Assembly (NCBI GenBank): GCA_020059915.1
Contig: JAGVBB010000003.1
Coordinates: forward strand, 160,610-224,609
Source: Minisyncoccota bacterium
GTDB lineage: Bacteria > Patescibacteriota > Minisyncoccia > UBA6257 > GWB1-50-10
Length of the DNA stretch: 64,000 nucleotides
Direction: 5' to 3'
The notes below the pieces were generated by a model. It worked only from the letters and a program-made list of their open reading frames with translations, had not been told where the DNA came from and did no database searches. Position numbers and translations under genes: made by a program. Positions 2,379-63,844 of this stretch are shown here, piece by piece; within the stretch, counting starts at the first letter, position 1, and every line of letters begins with the position of its first letter.

Positions 2379-2951
2379 TTAAACTGTTTTTGTTTTTAAC
2401 TCATTTATTTCCTTATCCAATTTTTCAATGTGCGCTTCTAATTTCTGCGAGCGCTCAATAAACTTTGCTTCAAGTTGTCGCGCCTGACTGGCAAATGTCT
2501 CTGCAACCATCATCATTTCAGTAACGTCCTCCATTGCAAGAAGTATAATTGGTGGAAATAATTCTGAAGAAGATTTCTCTTTAAAATGAATTTGGCGTGC
2601 ATTCAACATCATTATCTTGCGTCCAATAGAGGGGAATTCATGAGTAACTTCAAAACCCTTAAAGAAGGTGTTTTTAGGAAGAATATCCTCAAGAAGTTTT
2701 CGCAATGCAGGAATATCCCACTGACCATTCCCAAGATCATATACAATCTTCTTTTCTGTATCTTTTGGTTCAACCTGAAAAGCCCTATAAAATGATTCAT
2801 TCGCCGCCATTACGCGGAAATCTTTATCAAGTATAAGAACTGGCTCTCTCACAACATCTACTACTGTTTTGATGTACGTCCAACTCTCTTCCCACAACCT
2901 ATCAAAAAAATCTGTTCCGATGTTCCCGGTCTCCTTTGTTTTCGTTTCCAT
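2379..2951 (-). CDS. PAS domain protein with C-terminal coiled coil
   Basis: PAS-like core (ILDKDFRVMAANESFYRAFQVEPKD...GFEVTHEF...RKIMMLNARQIH) followed by a charged heptad-like tail. Confidence 0.55.
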   Translation of the reverse strand: METKTKETGNIGTDFFDRLWEESWTYIKTVVDVVREPVLILDKDFRVMAANESFYRAFQVEPKDTEKKIVYDLGNGQWDIPALRKLLEDILPKNTFFKGFEVTHEFPSIGRKIMMLNARQIHFKEKSSSELFPPIILLAMEDVTEMMMVAETFASQARQLEAKFIERSQKLEAHIEKLDKEINELKTKTV

Positions 2952-3035
2952 ACTATAAAGACGGTAAAGACCTCAAATTATTGCAACAAAAAGCCACCAT
3001 ATTGTTATAGGTGGTTTTTCCAACACCAACATAAA

Positions 3036-3356
3036 TCACAGCTGATGCTTTTTAATATGTTTCCAGGATTTTTTTGCGTGAGCAATAATTTCCTTTTTTT
3101 CCTTTTCGGAAAGACGCTTCTTTTGTGCATATGTTTCCATTGCAGTTTTTATAAATGAATTGTATTCTTCCTCTCCAACCTGCTTCATTTTTTTAAATTG
3201 TGGGGCAATATATGCATGAAATTCTGCAGACTTCTTTTTTACATCACCCAAAAACTTTTTTGTTGATTCAGAAACAAGTATAATTCCAGCCGCAATACTC
3301 AGTGCAGCGCCAATAAGTCGTCCTTCTATAATTTTTGCTCTATTATTTTTTTTCAT
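3036..3356 (-). CDS. Hypothetical small membrane-anchored Lys-rich protein
   Basis: ORF with one N-terminal TM helix; no recognisable family. Confidence 0.35.
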   Translation of the reverse strand: MKKNNRAKIIEGRLIGAALSIAAGIILVSESTKKFLGDVKKKSAEFHAYIAPQFKKMKQVGEEEYNSFIKTAMETYAQKKRLSEKEKKEIIAHAKKSWKHIKKHQL

Positions 3357-3369
3357 AATGTAATGTTAA

Positions 3370-3708
3370 TTAGTCTAATCGTAATATAAAAAATAGTGTG
3401 ATTACTGCTATTTGTATCTGAATAATACCAACCACAACAAATGTAATAACCAACCACTTTAGCGATTTCATTGAGATTTCATTATTTTTCTTCATTTCTT
3501 CAATTGTGTCTGATGTTCCATCAGAATGCTTTGTTTCCATGTATAAAAGCCGATGAAACGGCAAAATTATTGCATACAATACACAACACGGATTAAAGAG
3601 TATACTTATTAATGAGATAAATATCTCTCCTAGACCAAACGTGCTGTAATGCCGATCCCAAGATATAGAGCCTAATTTCATAAAGCTGCTATAGATATAC
3701 CTCCACAA
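3370..3708 (-). CDS. Hypothetical small membrane protein (start uncertain)
   Basis: ORF with hydrophobic segments, divergently oriented to the ECF sigma factor gene. It may start at the internal METKHSD. Confidence 0.3.
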   Translation of the reverse strand: MWRYIYSSFMKLGSISWDRHYSTFGLGEIFISLISILFNPCCVLYAIILPFHRLLYMETKHSDGTSDTIEEMKKNNEISMKSLKWLVITFVVVGIIQIQIAVITLFFILRLD

Positions 3709-3763
3709 TTACAGAAAACTGTAATGTTTGTGTAATAAAAATTGCCGAGATTCGGCTTATTAT

Positions 3764-4297
3764 ATGATGACCCTAGAAGATGAGGAAAAGATACGAACGA
3801 TATTCACTTCGGGACACCAAAACTTCAATCGAGGACTTAATTTGTATGCTCGTTCAAAAATTCAGGATCAAGCGACAAGCGAAGATCTTGTAGAAGATAC
3901 ATTTATGAAGACCTGGGTCTATCTTGTAAAAGGGGGAAAGATTGATATGATGAAATCCTTTTTATATCACATATTAAACAATCTCATTGTCGACGAATAT
4001 AGAAGACACAAAACACTTTCACTCGACAGCGCACTTATAAAAATTGGAATTGAACCAACCGCTCGTGATCCAAATCTCTCTGAAAAACTTGATGGGAAGG
4101 TGGTCATTCTTCTTGCGCGCGACCTCCCCGAACCATATAGAAATATTATAAATATGCGATATATAAGAGATTTATCGCTTACCGAAATGTCCCTGATTAC
4201 TGGTCAGACAAAAAATACCATCGCCGTACAAATACATCGTGGACTCACAAAATTGAAAACTTTGTATAAAGATAAAAGTCACACAAAATTTAATTAA
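3764..4297 (+). CDS. RNA polymerase ECF-type sigma-70 factor
   Basis: Sigma-70 region 2 (DLVEDTFMKTWVYL) and region 4 HTH (LPEPYRNIINMRYIRDLSLTEMSLITGQTKNTIAVQIHRGLTKLK). ATG at 3764 is preferred over the TTG at 3728 used by the ORF track. Confidence 0.75.
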   Translation: MMTLEDEEKIRTIFTSGHQNFNRGLNLYARSKIQDQATSEDLVEDTFMKTWVYLVKGGKIDMMKSFLYHILNNLIVDEYRRHKTLSLDSALIKIGIEPTARDPNLSEKLDGKVVILLARDLPEPYRNIINMRYIRDLSLTEMSLITGQTKNTIAVQIHRGLTKLKTLYKDKSHTKFN

Positions 4298-4475: not shown

Positions 4476-4633
4476 GTGCGGGGAGCAGTAGGAATCGCCT
4501 CTCGCTCTACTGAGCTCGAGACCTACGGCTTCTCTTCGAAGCCTGCGGCACTAAAGTATTGCTATTTGTAGTTAATTACTTCGTAATTAAACAAACAGGG
4601 AACCCGCGGTTCGATTCCTGCCACTTACAAAAT
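4476..4633 (-). repeat. tRNA-Trp 3'-end pseudo-copy (4476-4497) plus about 135-bp structured insert; member of the gene-3'-end-associated element family
   Basis: tgcggggagcagtaggaatcg matches the 3' acceptor/T-arm of the intact tRNA-Trp (tgcgggggcagtaggaatcg) about 200 bp away. The insert carries an AACCCgCGGTTcg hairpin module shared with the rpsI-associated element (AACCCaCGGTTt) and a 38-nt block shared with the tRNA-Tyr locus. Confidence 0.45.
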
Positions 4634-4676
4634 AAAACGAGCACATCATAAAAGACGTGTTCGTTTTATTTTTTTT
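4634..4676 (-). terminator. Bidirectional terminator hairpin directly 3' of tRNA-Trp
   Basis: aacgagcac...gtgttcgtt stem flanked by an A-run and a T-run. Confidence 0.5.
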
Positions 4677-4677
4677 G

Positions 4678-4748
4678 CGGGGGCAGTAGGAATCGAACCC
4701 ACATTAGCGGTTTTGGAGACCGCTGTCCTACCGTTGAACGATACCCCC
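4678..4748 (-). tRNA. trnW: tRNA-Trp (anticodon CCA)
   Basis: Hand-folded. Acceptor GGGGGTA/TGCCCCC, D-arm GTTC..GGAC, anticodon stem GCGGT/ACCGC with loop CTCCAAA, T-arm GTGGG-TTCGATT-CCTAC. Closely resembles E. coli tRNA-Trp. Confidence 0.85.
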
Positions 4749-5005: not shown

Positions 5006-5084
5006 AATAACGATATATAACTAATACAACTTACAATACTTTCAACAAAAAGTAAAGAAAATCACCTCTTCTTTATATTTTGTG

Positions 5085-5341
5085 AGCCGATGGTCGGGAT
5101 TGAACCGACGACCTACTCCTTCGCTTACACCTCTTTTTCTGATTACGCGTATAAGAGGACTAGACTGTATCTTTCCGCTCGTGGCGGACCCTTGTCAGTC
5201 GTTCGAGCGCATAATGCGCTACGGTCTTGACCATGCGTTGGCTATTAACCGTAATTCGGGATTCACATATGCATTGCTACATATGTGGGCAGAGAACGAG
5301 CGTTCTACCATGGAGTTGCTCTACCGCTGAGCTACATCGGC
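5085..5341 (-). tRNA. trnT: tRNA-Thr (anticodon GGU) interrupted by a 185-nt intron after position 36
   Basis: 5' exon 5307-5341 is GCCGATG-TA-GCTCAGCGGTAGAGC-A-ACTCC-ATGGT. 3' exon 5085-5121 is AA-GGAGT-AGGTC-GTCGG-TTCAATC-CCGAC-CATCGGC-T. The anticodon stem ACTCC/GGAGT and acceptor stem pair perfectly; the mature length is 72 nt. Confidence 0.7.
5122..5306 (-). ncRNA. Putative group I self-splicing intron in the tRNA-Thr(GGU) anticodon loop
   Basis: The 5' exon ends in U and the intron ends in G (omegaG). It has a P7-like GACUG...CAGUC pairing with a P8 hairpin (UCCGCC-ACGA-GCGGA), and an S-element-like AAGAUACAGUCUAGUCC (compare AAGAUAUAGUCC). The intron lies between anticodon positions 36 and 37. 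Confidence 0.55.
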
Positions 5342-5558
5342 TTATTACATTTTCAAATGCATCATATAATGCACTTCTCCATTGTACGAAAAATACAGGA
5401 AATGTCCACAATCCCCAGTTTTTAACTGCACTGAATACACTATCTCATAACCTCTGAGTTAATTTATAACTAAATAATGCCAAATTCCTAAATTAATTTT
5501 GAACTAAAAAGATATCCTCCAATAAAGATCTCAACAAATCTGATAATCAATACACCTC

Positions 5559-5600
5559 ATTGGTCCAGCTACTTCATATATGAAGTAGCTGGACCAATTA
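5559..5600. repeat. Perfect palindrome (about 19-bp arms) abutting the stop of the LAGLIDADG-like gene
   Basis: cattggtccagctacttcatat|atgaagtagctggaccaatt; it shares the outer stem TTGGTCCAGC with the palindrome at 6340-6381. Confidence 0.6.
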
Positions 5601-6323
5601 CTATTTTAACTTTTCAATTTCTTCCATCAAAATCTTTTTCAATTTTGAATTATGAAAATAAATAGTAACAACACCATGCTCACTTTTTCGTTTATACGTT
5701 CCCCTCCCTCGAAGTTTTGTCACAACGGGTTTTTGGAACTGCTCCTTTGGTACTCCCAATGATTTACACCAAAACCGCAAAATTTCTCGTTCATCTAAAT
5801 CACCAAAAATTTGTAAACCAAATTTCAATGCTTCTTTTTTTATTCCATATATTTTTTCAAGAAAATTGATAAATTGGATAATAACTCCAGGATCACTATT
5901 CCCCAACCGAATACTATTTCCCACCTTTGTTCCCTCGCCCCAGTATAGTCCAATTCCCAGGCCGAATAAAAACGAAGCATTGTTTGTTTCTGGATGATTA
6001 ACTAAAAAAGGATCTCCTCCCTTGTTTCTCTTTACATATGTCGCTTCACTTTGACTCCTTACTTGGATATTATGTGCAGTCATCCAATATATAACTTTAT
6101 GTTTTGAACATGAATAATATTCAGCAATCTCTTTCATTGATAGTCCTCGTTTTATATATAGAGTCTCCAATTCATTCTTAGAAAACGGACCACGAACTGG
6201 TGCCTTTCGTTCTTTTTTAACTTTCTTTAAAGAATCTATATATCGCAAACTTCTCTCCATTCTTTCTTTCTCCCTTTTTTCTCTCAATTTAACTGGATCA
6301 TATACTAACTTTTGTATTCCCAT
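5601..6323 (-). CDS. LAGLIDADG-type homing-endonuclease-like protein with N-terminal HTH (free-standing)
   Basis: FLFGLGIGLYWGEGTK motif and downstream KFGLQIFGDLDEREILRFW resemble LAGLIDADG/DOD-family endonucleases. HTH-like LSMKEIAEYYSCSKHKVIYWMTAHNI. The ORF is bracketed by two palindromes. Confidence 0.45.
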   Translation of the reverse strand: MGIQKLVYDPVKLREKREKERMERSLRYIDSLKKVKKERKAPVRGPFSKNELETLYIKRGLSMKEIAEYYSCSKHKVIYWMTAHNIQVRSQSEATYVKRNKGGDPFLVNHPETNNASFLFGLGIGLYWGEGTKVGNSIRLGNSDPGVIIQFINFLEKIYGIKKEALKFGLQIFGDLDEREILRFWCKSLGVPKEQFQKPVVTKLRGRGTYKRKSEHGVVTIYFHNSKLKKILMEEIEKLK

Positions 6324-6339
6324 ATCTACGGTATATCAC

Positions 6340-6381
6340 TCATTGGTCCAGCAATGTTGTATACAACATTGCTGGACCAAT
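6340..6381. repeat. Perfect palindrome upstream of the LAGLIDADG-like gene (partner of 5559-5600)
   Basis: cattggtccagcaatgttgtat|acaacattgctggaccaatg. Confidence 0.6.
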
Positions 6382-7900: not shown

Positions 7901-8130
7901 GTTCTAGAATATGTTACTTACGTAAGAATTAGGTTGTGGGGGTCACTATCTCTACACGCGCCTCGGCAAGAAAACAAAATATAGCTTCTGGAAGGTTCCA
8001 TCCAAAAAAGGTATATGACTGCTTATTCTCGACATGACGCATAATGTGTTTCATGATTTTATTGTCTTTACTAGTAAAACGCCCGGTTTTTAAAAGTGTT
8101 ACAAGAAGATTTGCCATTCCGGTTAATTGC

Positions 8131-8150
8131 TCCTGCCTACCGGCAGGCAG
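8131..8150. repeat. REP-like palindromic element CCTGCCTACCGGCAGGCAGG (copy 1 of 3, inverted relative to the other two)
   Basis: Exact reverse complement of the CCTGCCTGCCGGTAGGCAGG core found at 19842 and 31278. Confidence 0.6.
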
Positions 8151-8162
8151 GCGCCGTCTCAA

Positions 8163-8413
8163 CGCAGGGGAGGATTCTCCTCTCACTCTGCTGAGTTCGA
8201 GACCTACGGCTTCAAAATCAAAGGATGCGGGTCGCGATGTTTTTTGGGGAGGATTTTCCTCACCCGTCACTTTCGCTCCTCCTTCGGAATCCAGGGTTCC
8301 TCGCTTTCGTTCGTTTCACTCACTCTTCGCATTCGCGCGCTCGGATACCCTTCGAATCCTCCTAGACATGAAACTAAAAAAGAAAGGACAAGTCCTTTCT
8401 TTTTTAGTTTGTG
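8163..8413 (-). repeat. tRNA-Tyr 3'-end pseudo-copy (8163-8177) plus about 235-bp insert; member of the gene-3'-end-associated element family
   Basis: cgcaggggaggattc is identical to the tRNA-Tyr 3' acceptor/T-arm 15-mer. The adjacent block ctctcactctgctgagttcgagacctacggcttc is paralogous to the tRNA-Trp locus block. A diverged match (cgctttcgttcgtttcactcactc) to the rplK/rpsI module is present, about 11/19 ungapped. Confidence 0.45.
8376..8406 (-). terminator. Terminator hairpin (aaaggac/gtccttt) directly 3' of tRNA-Tyr
   Basis: 7-bp stem flanked by A- and T-runs. Confidence 0.5.
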
Positions 8414-8496
8414 TGCGCAGGGGAGGATTCGAACCTCCGTAGCCGATAGGCGTCAGATTTACAGTCTGATACAATTGACCGCTCTGTCACCTGCGC
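8414..8496 (-). tRNA. trnY: tRNA-Tyr (anticodon GUA) with long variable arm
   Basis: Hand-folded. Acceptor GCGCAGG/CCTGCGC, anticodon stem-loop TCAGA-CTGTAAA-TCTGA, long variable arm, T-arm GGAGG-TTCGAAT-CCTCC. Confidence 0.85.
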
Positions 8497-10651: not shown

Positions 10652-11346
10652 CTCCACTCTTCTATTAGCTTATGATTTCCAGATTGAAGCACCTCAGGTA
10701 CTTTCCAAATTTTTTTTCGTTTTCCTTTTTCTTGAATCACTACTTCCGCAGGTTTTGTATATACCGGATACGAACCCTTTATTTCTTCTAACGATTCCGT
10801 TTTTCCTAACACTCCAGGAATCTGACGCGATACTGCATCCATCACCACAAGTGCAGGTAATTCACCACCAGAAAGCACAAAATCTCCTATTGAGACCTCC
10901 TCATCTGCAATATATTCCGCAACACGTTCGTCTACTCCTTCATAGCGACCACAAATAAAAATGAGATGATTATATTTTGAAAGTCGCTTTGCATCCTCAT
11001 TGGTAAACACTTTTCCTCGTGTTGAAAACAAAATGGTTCGGCTCTGCTCACCACGGGCTGTTCGTGTTTTTCCCTTTTTTATTTTTGATAATACTTTTTC
11101 TACCGCTTTATAAATCGGTTCAACCTTGAGCACCATCCCCGGTCCTCCCCCGTATGGTGATTCATCAGTTATTTTATGTTTTCCCAATCCAAACTGGCGA
11201 AGTGCTACTGGATTTATTTTTATTAATTTCTTTTCTTGTGCGCGTCCAATAATTGAAGCATTACAGTATGACTCCAAAGATTCTGGAAATAACGAGATAA
11301 TGTGAAATGTTTTCATTGTCTTGCTTATTGAAACTATACCAAACAA
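10630..11346 (-). CDS. trmD: tRNA (guanine37-N1)-methyltransferase
   Basis: SPOUT/TrmD motifs (ISIGDFVLSGGELPALVVMDAVSRQIPGVLG). Confidence 0.85.
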   Translation of the reverse strand: MFGIVSISKTMKTFHIISLFPESLESYCNASIIGRAQEKKLIKINPVALRQFGLGKHKITDESPYGGGPGMVLKVEPIYKAVEKVLSKIKKGKTRTARGEQSRTILFSTRGKVFTNEDAKRLSKYNHLIFICGRYEGVDERVAEYIADEEVSIGDFVLSGGELPALVVMDAVSRQIPGVLGKTESLEEIKGSYPVYTKPAEVVIQEKGKRKKIWKVPEVLQSGNHKLIEEWRKNKQQS

Positions 11347-11382
11347 AAACCCCGCCAGTCCATGGACCGGCGGGATTCTTTT

Positions 11383-39303: not shown

Positions 39304-39346
39304 CTAGAACTTGTTTATACTATCATCCAAGCCCATCAAACTCAAA

Positions 39347-39376
39347 CCCCGCCACTCCATGGAGTGGCGGGGTTTT
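39347..39376. terminator. Bidirectional terminator (ccccgccactcc-at-ggagtggcgggg)
   Basis: 12-bp perfect stem followed by TTTT; lies between rplL and tRNA-Val. Confidence 0.6.
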
Positions 39377-63180: not shown

Positions 63181-63191
63181 AGAAAAACACA

Positions 63192-63406
63192 ACAGTGGAG
63201 AAAGCAAAAATCCCGCCTTTGGCGGGATTTACTTTAACGCTTTCTCCGAATGCTGCATCGCTTCGCTCTTTAGAAACCCACGGTTTCTAACGCTCGTTTT
63301 ACTCGCTGTTTTCCTCCACGGGGAGAGACTCATTTCCTGTCTCTCCCCGAACCCCTCTCTCACAACAGTGGAGAAAGCAAAAATCCCGCCAAAGGCGGGA
63401 TTTACT
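63192..63406 (-). repeat. rpsI-associated structured element: insert (63251-63367) between the rpsI terminator region and a pseudo-copy of the rpsI 3' end plus terminator (63192-63250)
   Basis: About 58-bp direct repeat carrying ggagaaagcgttaa, terminator aaatcccgcc-NNNN-ggcgggattt, and gctttctccactgttgt. Insert modules CGCTCGTTTTACTCGCT, AAACCCACGGTTT and TTTCCTCCAC-GGGGAGAGAC..GTCTCTCCCC match the rplK-associated element. Confidence 0.55.
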
Positions 63407-63844
63407 TTAACGCTTTCTCCACTGTTGTGGTCTGCGGGCTTTACGAAGTCCAGGATGTTTTCGTTCCACCATTCGTGGATCACGCTTTAAGAAACCAAGT
63501 ACTTTCAAATTTGCTCTCCAAATTGGATTGAGCATAATGAGCGTTCGGGAAATTCCCAAACGAATTGCTTCTGCTTGTGCGGTTGTTCCCCCACCAACAA
63601 CATTCACTGAAACCTTATAGGAATCAAGGGATAATGTAGTAAATGGATCAATTACTATTTTTCTCAATCTTTCCGTACCAAAATATTTAGCAAAACTTTT
63701 TTCGTTAACAAGCACCTCTGATTTATCAAATTTCCCAGTAAATAATCGAACTCGAGCAACTGCAGTTTTTCTTCGTCCAACAGCCTCAAAATATTTAGTT
63801 CCTTTTATTGACTTTGTAGTCTCTTTTACTTTTGTAGTTGTCAT
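63407..63844 (-). CDS. rpsI: 30S ribosomal protein S9
   Basis: S9 core and C-terminal KARRPQQWRKR; rplM-rpsI synteny. Confidence 0.9.
   Translation of the reverse strand: MTTTKVKETTKSIKGTKYFEAVGRRKTAVARVRLFTGKFDKSEVLVNEKSFAKYFGTERLRKIVIDPFTTLSLDSYKVSVNVVGGGTTAQAEAIRLGISRTLIMLNPIWRANLKVLGFLKRDPRMVERKHPGLRKARRPQQWRKR

Follow-up and report, generated by a model that had tools for sequence, protein, structure and literature searches.

Small gene-less inserts with target-derived arms behind tRNA and ribosomal-protein genes of Patescibacteria

The CTX-phage attP(+) hairpin and the attC sites of integrons are described in two published accounts (PMC3442271, PMC4792948) as recombining in the form of folded single strands. 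The genomes of CPR/Patescibacteria are tiny, and few mobile elements have been recognised in them. The 64 kb stretch of DNA analysed here (64,000 nt, hereafter the window) contains an element type that had not been annotated before; at its four loci, essential genes are targeted and not broken. The inserts are 90-250 nt long and lack an ORF. In each unit, a core of 60-180 nt stands between an inverted and a direct copy of the 3′ end of the host gene; the two arms pair over 9-19 bp, and the duplication measures 9-60 nt. This architecture is identical across more than 20 units and at least 10 host genes.

CTX-type IMEX, in which a folded ssDNA attP hairpin recombines with dif through XerCD, have much in common with these units. 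In both, an inverted target-like site, a spacer and a direct target site fold to a hairpin that reproduces the target duplex, and the inverted target-like sites are ~90 nt apart in CTX and 60-180 nt apart as the arms of the units. The target stays functional at one end in both, and serial integration therefore builds tandem arrays. One strand is active in CTX-type IMEX and, by analogy, would be in the units. The targets differ, however, being dif in one case and the 3′ ends of tRNA genes, rplK and rpsI in the other, and so does the cargo, a phage genome as against a terminator hairpin only. The spacer of the units is a conserved multi-hairpin core, and whereas XerCD catalyses the CTX reaction, the units are known from sequence only. 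Their stem takes a different sequence at each target, so that no single sequence-specific recombinase could account for every copy.

Integron cassettes share with the units the topology of core site, cargo, inverse core site, variable structured centre and core site, as well as the conservation of structure over sequence, in a one-strand imperfect palindrome with a variable centre. They also form arrays in which the newest member adjoins the primary site. Unlike integrons, the units come without intI, attI or Pc (no integrase is nearby) and without ORF cargo, their 9-60-nt repeat is the 3′ end of a host gene, and their junction lies at the inner rather than the outer end of the stem. The R″/R′ consensus of attC (RYYYAAC/GTTRRRY) is missing: the outer ends of the units are acceptor-stem sequence, and the T-loop GTTCGAA stands at the inner end.

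MITEs and IS200/IS605-derived palindromic elements are, like the units, small, non-coding, structured and located at gene ends, with strand-specific hairpins and an enzyme that presumably acts in trans. But MITEs have constant terminal inverted repeats and a short, fixed target-site duplication or none, whereas the arms of the units vary with the host gene, the duplication is long and variable, and the units are few per genome (four loci in 64 kb, with two core types). IS200/IS605-derived elements and TnpB omega-RNA insert 3′ of a short TAM without duplication, whereas the units duplicate a long target. No transposase domain (tnpA/tnpB) was found in the neighbours of the units. As a lead, TnpB omega-RNA resembles the units in having a scaffold followed by a target-identical 3′ segment; a TnpB omega-RNA with a flank guide was nonetheless rejected, given the duplicated target and the lack of a TAM common to the tRNA, rplK and rpsI targets. 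A CAST-like homing spacer was also rejected, since units stand at anything from ~21 to 62 nt from the T-loop and lack Tn7 ends.

We scanned the whole window for direct repeats of at least 13 nt, spaced 60-600 nt apart, with an inverted copy in between. Exactly four loci carry this signature, behind tRNA-Trp, tRNA-Tyr, rplK and rpsI. At the two tRNA genes the order on the tRNA strand is a complete tRNA, a long perfect A/T-flanked terminator-like hairpin, an inverted arm, a GC-rich core and a direct copy from the T-loop on. The inverted arm is a short reverse complement of the T-loop and the 3′ side of the T-stem, and folding of the Tyr and Trp elements pairs it with the direct arm, closing the core (z -3.9 and -6.7). 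This inverted target copy and the stem that it closes had been overlooked in the original prediction.

The host at the Tyr locus is an intact tRNA-Tyr (GTA) gene on the minus strand (8413-8496; ARAGORN, Rfam tRNA 59.8 bits), for which a promoter scan places a promoter-like site at 8535-8507. Between the gene and the first unit lies a perfect 18-bp A/T-flanked hairpin, bidirectional and terminator-like by sequence and fold (8371-8410, minus strand). The same design follows the tRNA in L001, L003, L005-L008, L054 and L055 (L numbers denote comparative sequences, all of them metagenome-assembled).

Two units follow, both on the minus strand. The proximal one (8246-8362) opens with an inverted arm, GGAGGATTCGAA on the minus strand (8351-8362, with a 9-nt inverted copy at 8354), that is the reverse complement of the tRNA-Tyr T-loop and T-stem 3′ side. 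Its core (8262-8350) begins with TCGAAGGG, includes AGTGAGTGAAACGAACG and is rpsI/rplK-like ("type B-like") by fold and local alignment, being co-linear with the rpsI core and weakly alignable with that of rplK. It ends in a degenerate direct arm, minus strand GAGGAAAATCCTCCCC (8246-8261), of which L046 has an orthologous remnant, GACGGGTGAGGAAAATCCTCCCC. The distal unit (8163-8240) is of a second kind, type A, with a decayed 5′ half. Its core (8178-8240) retains an intact 3′ hairpin, H2 (8179-8204), with a G-C to A-U compensatory variant, and is recognised by pattern and by the type-A covariance model (8178-8238, 28.8 bits, E=2.7e-5). Its direct arm (8163-8177) is an exact copy of tRNA-Tyr positions ~57-71 (GAATCCTCCCCTGCG). 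This 15-nt copy (cgcaggggaggattc) had been predicted correctly, but its partner lies at 8416-8430, one base away from the 8415-8429 first given.

In the window the type-A model matches 4485-4567 and 8178-8238 only. The Tyr locus therefore consists of two units, in tandem or nested, a division absent from the original prediction. Two stretches that had been described as degenerate tRNA-like pieces are real: cccttcgaatcctcc (~8349-8363) contains the inverted arm of the proximal unit and ggggaggattttcctc (8246-8261) is its degenerate direct arm, so the pieces are the arms of the second Tyr unit. The best explanation of 8163-8412, held tentatively, is a stack of two small gene-less insertion cassettes. 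A second assembly (L044, a JGI contig) reads the tRNA-Tyr 3′ end, the terminator hairpin and the start of the inverted arm identically, and the whole Tyr element is present in NCBI record QZJB01000103.1 (L045); it is therefore not a one-off assembly artefact.

A sister type-A element lies behind tRNA-Trp (4677-4748), at 4477-4624 on the minus strand (pattern and fold; model match 4485-4567, 66 bits). A terminator hairpin (4629-4672, minus strand) precedes its inverted arm (4608-4624), its core with an extra AT-rich hairpin (4498-4607) and its direct arm (4477-4497). The block said to be common to the two tRNA loci is borne out, with 88% identity across 43 nt (8171-8213 versus 4490-4532), and the 35-nt pattern GAAGCCGTAGGTCTCGARCTCAGYAGAGYGAGAGG has these two blocks as its only matches in the window (0/100 in shuffles). 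Behind rplK, a type-B element (26951-27142, minus strand) is bounded by a 34-nt direct repeat of the rplK 3′ end (26951-26984 and 27109-27142), with an inverted copy at 27072-27092 and the core in between. The type-B element behind rpsI (63188-63420, minus strand) has a 60-nt direct repeat of gene end and terminator around a 113-nt core. At both genes the repeated segment comprises the final 14-30 nt of the coding sequence and the start of the terminator, and the inserts have the same architecture as those at the tRNAs, with another core.

The likeness (11/19) reported between the Tyr insert and the CGCTCG..ACTCGCT module of the rplK and rpsI inserts is present but marginal. Local alignment of the Tyr insert gives z=2.5 against rplK (reached by 14/300 shuffles) and z=2.8 against rpsI (4/300), as compared with z=5.2 between the rplK and rpsI inserts. 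The tie of the Tyr insert to the other two rests more on shared architecture than on the 11/19 match. We also noted that the two 60-nt repeats at rpsI are identical save for a flip of the 3-nt terminator loop (63218-63220 versus 63391-63393; TTT versus AAA), which is a signature of quasi-palindrome template switching.

The type-A consensus runs from the inverted arm, ending in ...GGATTCGAACC, through GCGGGCCGCA, H1, G(A/U)AGG, H2 and GG(C/A)GA to the direct arm, and GCGGGCCGCA is the point at which optional extra hairpins are inserted. H1 is a 6-bp stem of free sequence with the loop GAAGA; H2 is UCUCGAGCUC-AGCA-GAGCGAGA, with tandem G.A. In the 11 type-A copies, standard pairs occupy 93.2% of cells as against 78.4% when shuffled (0/500), and compensatory change occurs at 16 of the 24 pairs. 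Pairing falls to 37-55% in a control with slid partners. Covariation extends to all six pairs of H1. In H2, the G-C to A-U change of the window Tyr copy is common to a Saccharibacteria copy (L006), and L055 has three compensatory pairs and one C-G to U.G change. Type D, known from five copies behind tRNA-Tyr and tRNA-Trp, has compensatory change at 27 of 50 predicted pairs.

Judging by the pattern of base pairs, it is probably the gene strand that is structured: the U.G in H2 is invariant, the L055 change mentioned above is from C-G to U.G, and the closing stems contain ~8 G.U versus 2 A.C. Folding energy was discarded as evidence of strand. It favours the gene strand in 20 of 21 units, but random segments of the window are equally biased (mean -3.6 kcal/mol, 72% negative).

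An exact pattern of the conserved hairpin was used to scan one genome per species across 185,579 species. The six loci found are all in CPR MAGs (Paceibacterota, Parcubacteria, Nomurabacteria and two Saccharibacteria), and each follows, at a distance of 25-200 nt, a tRNA on the same strand (Lys, Tyr, Gln, Glu, Tyr and Gln). A metagenome scan added four contigs, all CPR/Patescibacteria, with tRNA-Met, tRNA-Arg and, in two, no detectable tRNA. The type-A core is thus 25-200 nt downstream of a tRNA at eight of ten loci (Lys, Tyr twice, Gln twice, Glu, Met and Arg), and with the window its hosts are Lys, Tyr, Gln, Glu, Met, Arg and Trp tRNAs. Such rarity and patchiness fit transfer, not an essential RNA. 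In the two contigs where the core has no upstream tRNA (L010, L011), a large-cargo version was sought, and the sequence examined contained no proximal repeat and no integrase. In a Saccharibacteria sequence (L004, 6840-6900), a type-B core motif (GGGAAAACTACAGTTTTCCC..CCCTTTCGG, compare the rplK insert) occurs in opposite orientation upstream of tRNA-Glu, so that type B, too, is common to distant CPR lineages.

The original prediction invoked one element family at different tRNAs, with relaxed or multiple target specificity or recombination between elements, and a search for further copies indeed locates the same core at other tRNAs in CPR contigs. Multiple targets are evident from the occurrence of one core behind at least seven tRNA species (eight isoacceptors) in distant CPR lineages, and relatives have exchanged cores at one and the same site, but specificity is not relaxed: the arms of each copy match its own host gene. 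The longest exact run of the direct arm averages 13.3 nt with the cognate tRNA versus 5.2 nt with non-cognate tRNAs, and that of the inverted arm 13.2 versus 7.1 nt, the leftover non-cognate match being the universal T-loop. In all type-A units the direct repeat starts at T-loop position ~56-58 and runs to or past the discriminator. Together, the comparisons show a CPR-wide superfamily of structured inserts, small in size, whose direct and inverted arms derive from the target. They occupy the 3′ ends of tRNA genes and of a small number of ribosomal-protein genes, and their cores are interchangeable. The family looks like undescribed site-specific insertion elements, and a full-text literature search found no description of these inserts.

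Orthologous tRNA-Tyr sites, located via homologues of a 104-aa neighbour, differ in what they carry. Type A occurs in the window, L054, L055, L058 (a remnant), L002 and L005, and a single type D in L050/L051. In L046 three or more D units form an array together with remnants; L061 has type D, an A remnant and one further remnant; and L048 has a fifth core, type E. The window's own site has the B-like unit beside type A. The tRNA-Trp site has type A in the window, C in L002 and D in L051, and is empty in L005; the L051 copy has Trp-specific arms, including the TTCGACC T-loop variant. Arrays are present in L046, L061, L002 and the window. Decay also varies. The window copy lost its 5′ half, L054 and L058 (flanking protein 74-75% identical) retain the full type-A 5′ half at the Tyr site and lost H2, and L055 retains the whole unit. 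With type A behind tRNA-Tyr in six genome lineages and decay that differs by lineage, movement may be rare.

At a finer scale, L050/L051 and L052 have an identical neighbour protein and flanks and are separated by one substitution and a 153-nt indel. In L052 the core and direct arm are gone save for the last base, while the terminator and inverted arm are kept, a product not predicted by simple excision between direct repeats. Among the loci compared, we saw no clean empty site in close relatives and no excised form. These comparisons show that the inserts decay, form arrays and vary between strains, and they could act as strain markers. The units interrupt metagenome assembly at tRNA genes: three assemblies stop in or at the element, and L053 and L057 both terminate within tRNA-Tyr just upstream of it. 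The units also create pseudo-tRNA fragments.

By analogy with the folded-strand systems described above, we suggest, at a little under even confidence, that the units may be non-autonomous, site-specific insertion cassettes in which a folded single strand mimics the target. On the host strand, a unit consists of a replacement 3′ part, a terminator-like hairpin, an inverted 3′ copy and a core of covarying hairpins, with a further 3′ copy downstream. It would enter inside the 3′ part of the gene (in tRNAs at T-loop 56-58) and restore the gene with its own 3′ copy and terminator, displacing the previous 3′ end downstream. Repeated entry would build arrays in which older units move downstream and decay. 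The active form would be a folded single strand, of ssDNA or RNA, in which the two arms pair to re-create the target duplex as a stem, capped by the conserved core. The enzyme would act in trans; no recombinase, transposase or reverse transcriptase is encoded beside any unit in the neighbouring ORFs examined, and none of 40 neighbouring ORFs matches the Phage_integrase domain. Hypothetical excised circles have dumbbell folds (z -5.9 to -8.2).

All core types except the rpsI copy start with TCGAA and finish in purine-rich sequence (GAGAGG, GGGAGA), which makes recombination at these ends plausible for core swapping. Transfer of cores to new genes, and replacement of a core at the same gene, would probably proceed by recombination in the T-loop-derived TCGAA/GAATCC core boundaries. 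Should the folded-strand model be true, these would be the smallest known site-specific integrative units and a natural case in which the recombination site is a copy of the target, of relevance to genome-insertion tools. Against it, the model gives no account of how both arms are re-derived for a new target, nor of the L052 haplotype. A programmable, homology-directed insertion is conceivable, though in our judgement unlikely: a conserved single-stranded core, ssDNA or RNA, would be sent to any gene 3′ end encoded forward and reverse in the closing stem, with retargeting by copying of the new target during or after insertion. In that case the arms would have an active part, and the mechanism would differ from those of integrases, integrons, IS110 bridge RNAs and TnpB/CAST homing.

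To the reading of the units as structured small-RNA genes, with a cellular or element-encoded function and transcribed by host read-through or from their own promoter, we assign a low probability. Their stem would mimic the acceptor/T-helix of a tRNA or the 3′ end of an RNA. Strong covariation, the conserved loops (GAAGA, AGCA and tandem G.A), which resemble those of protein-binding RNAs, and the U.G pair that is invariant on the gene strand would all be in keeping with such genes. So would the fact that several related genomes have kept type A behind tRNA-Tyr, in L055 with compensatory changes. Co-transcription is plausible in L002, where no terminator stands between the tRNA and the unit. 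Usually, however, a strong terminator hairpin stands between the unit and the sole visible promoter. Units are free to decay (L054 and L058 have no H2 left, and the window copy no 5′ half), their distribution is patchy and rare, and unrelated cores swap at one site, all of which count against RNA genes; nor can the same architecture at rplK and rpsI mimic a tRNA. That this interval might hold a known structured RNA was considered in the original prediction, and the units match no Rfam family: whether gathering or E-value thresholds are applied, none is present in 8100-8420. In the window as a whole, gathering scores are reached by tRNAs and the L10 leader only, and in E-value mode the interval 8100-8420, the L001 element and the L046 array yield only chance matches on terminator hairpins.

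Islands and prophages that target tRNA genes by tyrosine integrases offer another comparison. As in the units, a direct repeat of the tRNA from T-loop to 3′ end flanks the insert, the gene is restored by an element-borne copy, and repeated use of the site leaves fragment arrays. Such arrays of 3′ fragments are known from tRNA island hot spots. Work by Williams (NAR, 2002) reportedly distinguishes sublocation classes, in which the T-loop is said to be used by one class of tRNA-targeting integrases and a repeat from the T-loop to the tRNA end to be the signature of T-loop-targeting tyrosine integrases. The direct repeat, the 3′-fragment arrays of hot spots and defence genes near two units (SIR2 in L006, ThsB-TIR in L011) might therefore suggest that the units are scars, the att-proximal arms of integrase-bearing prophages or islands integrated in the tRNA T-loop, with the interior since deleted. 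We regard this as improbable. Unlike islands, the units are 90-250 bp long, with no genes or integrase, an extra inverted target copy and a covarying hairpin core. At more than 15 independent loci the interior is a neat terminator hairpin without gene fragments, unlike the outcome of random deletion. The core is absent from 2.9 million viral contigs, 50,697 phage records and 72,556 plasmids, there is no integrase nearby, and double-stranded arm sites account for neither the target-specific inverted arm nor the hairpin covariation.

Local template switching during replication at terminator palindromes, with gene-end and inverted duplication and no mobile unit, is very improbable: although the 3′ part, terminator and inverted arm make up a single long imperfect palindrome with the terminator loop at its centre, the repeat often reaches into the terminator stem and the TTT/AAA loop is flipped between the rpsI repeats, it cannot yield a near-identical 60-nt core at many unrelated loci in phyla-level lineages and leaves the covarying core hairpins unexplained, so that it is largely refuted by the shared cores and may at most contribute to the origin of the arms.

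Several further identities were considered for the inserts and rejected. A tmRNA, Y-RNA or tRNA-like gene is not detected by ARAGORN and would not fit a T-loop sequence that is paired instead of looped, nor the non-tRNA arms at rplK and rpsI. For a phage attP, two scans of viral contigs for the hairpin block returned nothing and one chance match in a GC-rich coding region. A 15-mer viral scan gave 31 matches at loci lacking a tRNA, which were regarded as fortuitous; the element has no BLAST match among phages and plasmids. A retroelement primer-binding site was rejected because the inverted arm omits the last 3-6 nt of the tRNA and CCA, and also because group II introns are reported absent from Patescibacteria (PMC13011429). 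For a group I/II intron, the upstream tRNA is complete without the insert and no intron model matches.

Defence-type genes adjoin two of the type-A units, in tRNA-proximal regions that are variable islands. In L006 the neighbour is a gene with a SIR2-like domain (651-1682); in L011 it is a Thoeris ThsB TIR domain (3588-4157), near which a LexA-like gene and a DNA methylase also lie. At tRNA-Tyr in L058/L059/L060 (~1850-2180) there is a second type of mobile insertion, an 81-aa GIY-YIG nuclease ORF (Pfam E=4.9e-19) inserted directly upstream of the tRNA. Ahead of this ORF stands a duplicate of the 5′ part of the tRNA, remodelled so that a GC hairpin replaces the anticodon arm. L054 has only a 3′-end remnant of this ORF.

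Elsewhere in the window, a tRNA-Thr(GGU) on the minus strand (5083-5340) is split after anticodon position 36 by an insert of ~190 nt, with GCCGATGTAGCTCAGCGGTAGAGCAACTCCATGGT as the 5′ half and AAGGAGTAGGTCGTCGGTTCAATCCCGACCATCGGCT as the 3′ half. ARAGORN and Rfam, even at E<=1, missed this gene, and L046 and L050 have an intact tRNA-Thr(GGT) in the same place. A group I intron is the probable identity of the insert, and PMC13011429 lists Thr(GGU) 36/37 among its calls for Patescibacteria. A 240-aa ORF without a Pfam match (5601-6323) lies between two near-perfect palindromes of 41-43 nt (5556-5598 and 6339-6381; CATTGGTCCAGC...GCTGGACCAATG). L058 has one palindrome (~2533-2573) and no such ORF, and L059, with the same flanking protein, has the ORF (2589-3293); the region is a palindrome-bounded presence/absence cassette.

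Near-identical terminator hairpins (AAAAACCCCGCCAGTCCATGGACTGGCGGGGTTTT) stand at gene ends at 11340-11377, 26913-26950 and 39337-39374 of the window, and a member of this family also ends one unit of the L046 array (~3668-3705). The family behaves like a REP-like dispersed terminator. A GC-rich hairpin, CTGCCTGCCGGTAGGCAGG, occurs twice, downstream of the tRNA-Tyr array (8125-8155) and downstream of tRNA-Glu (31270-31320).
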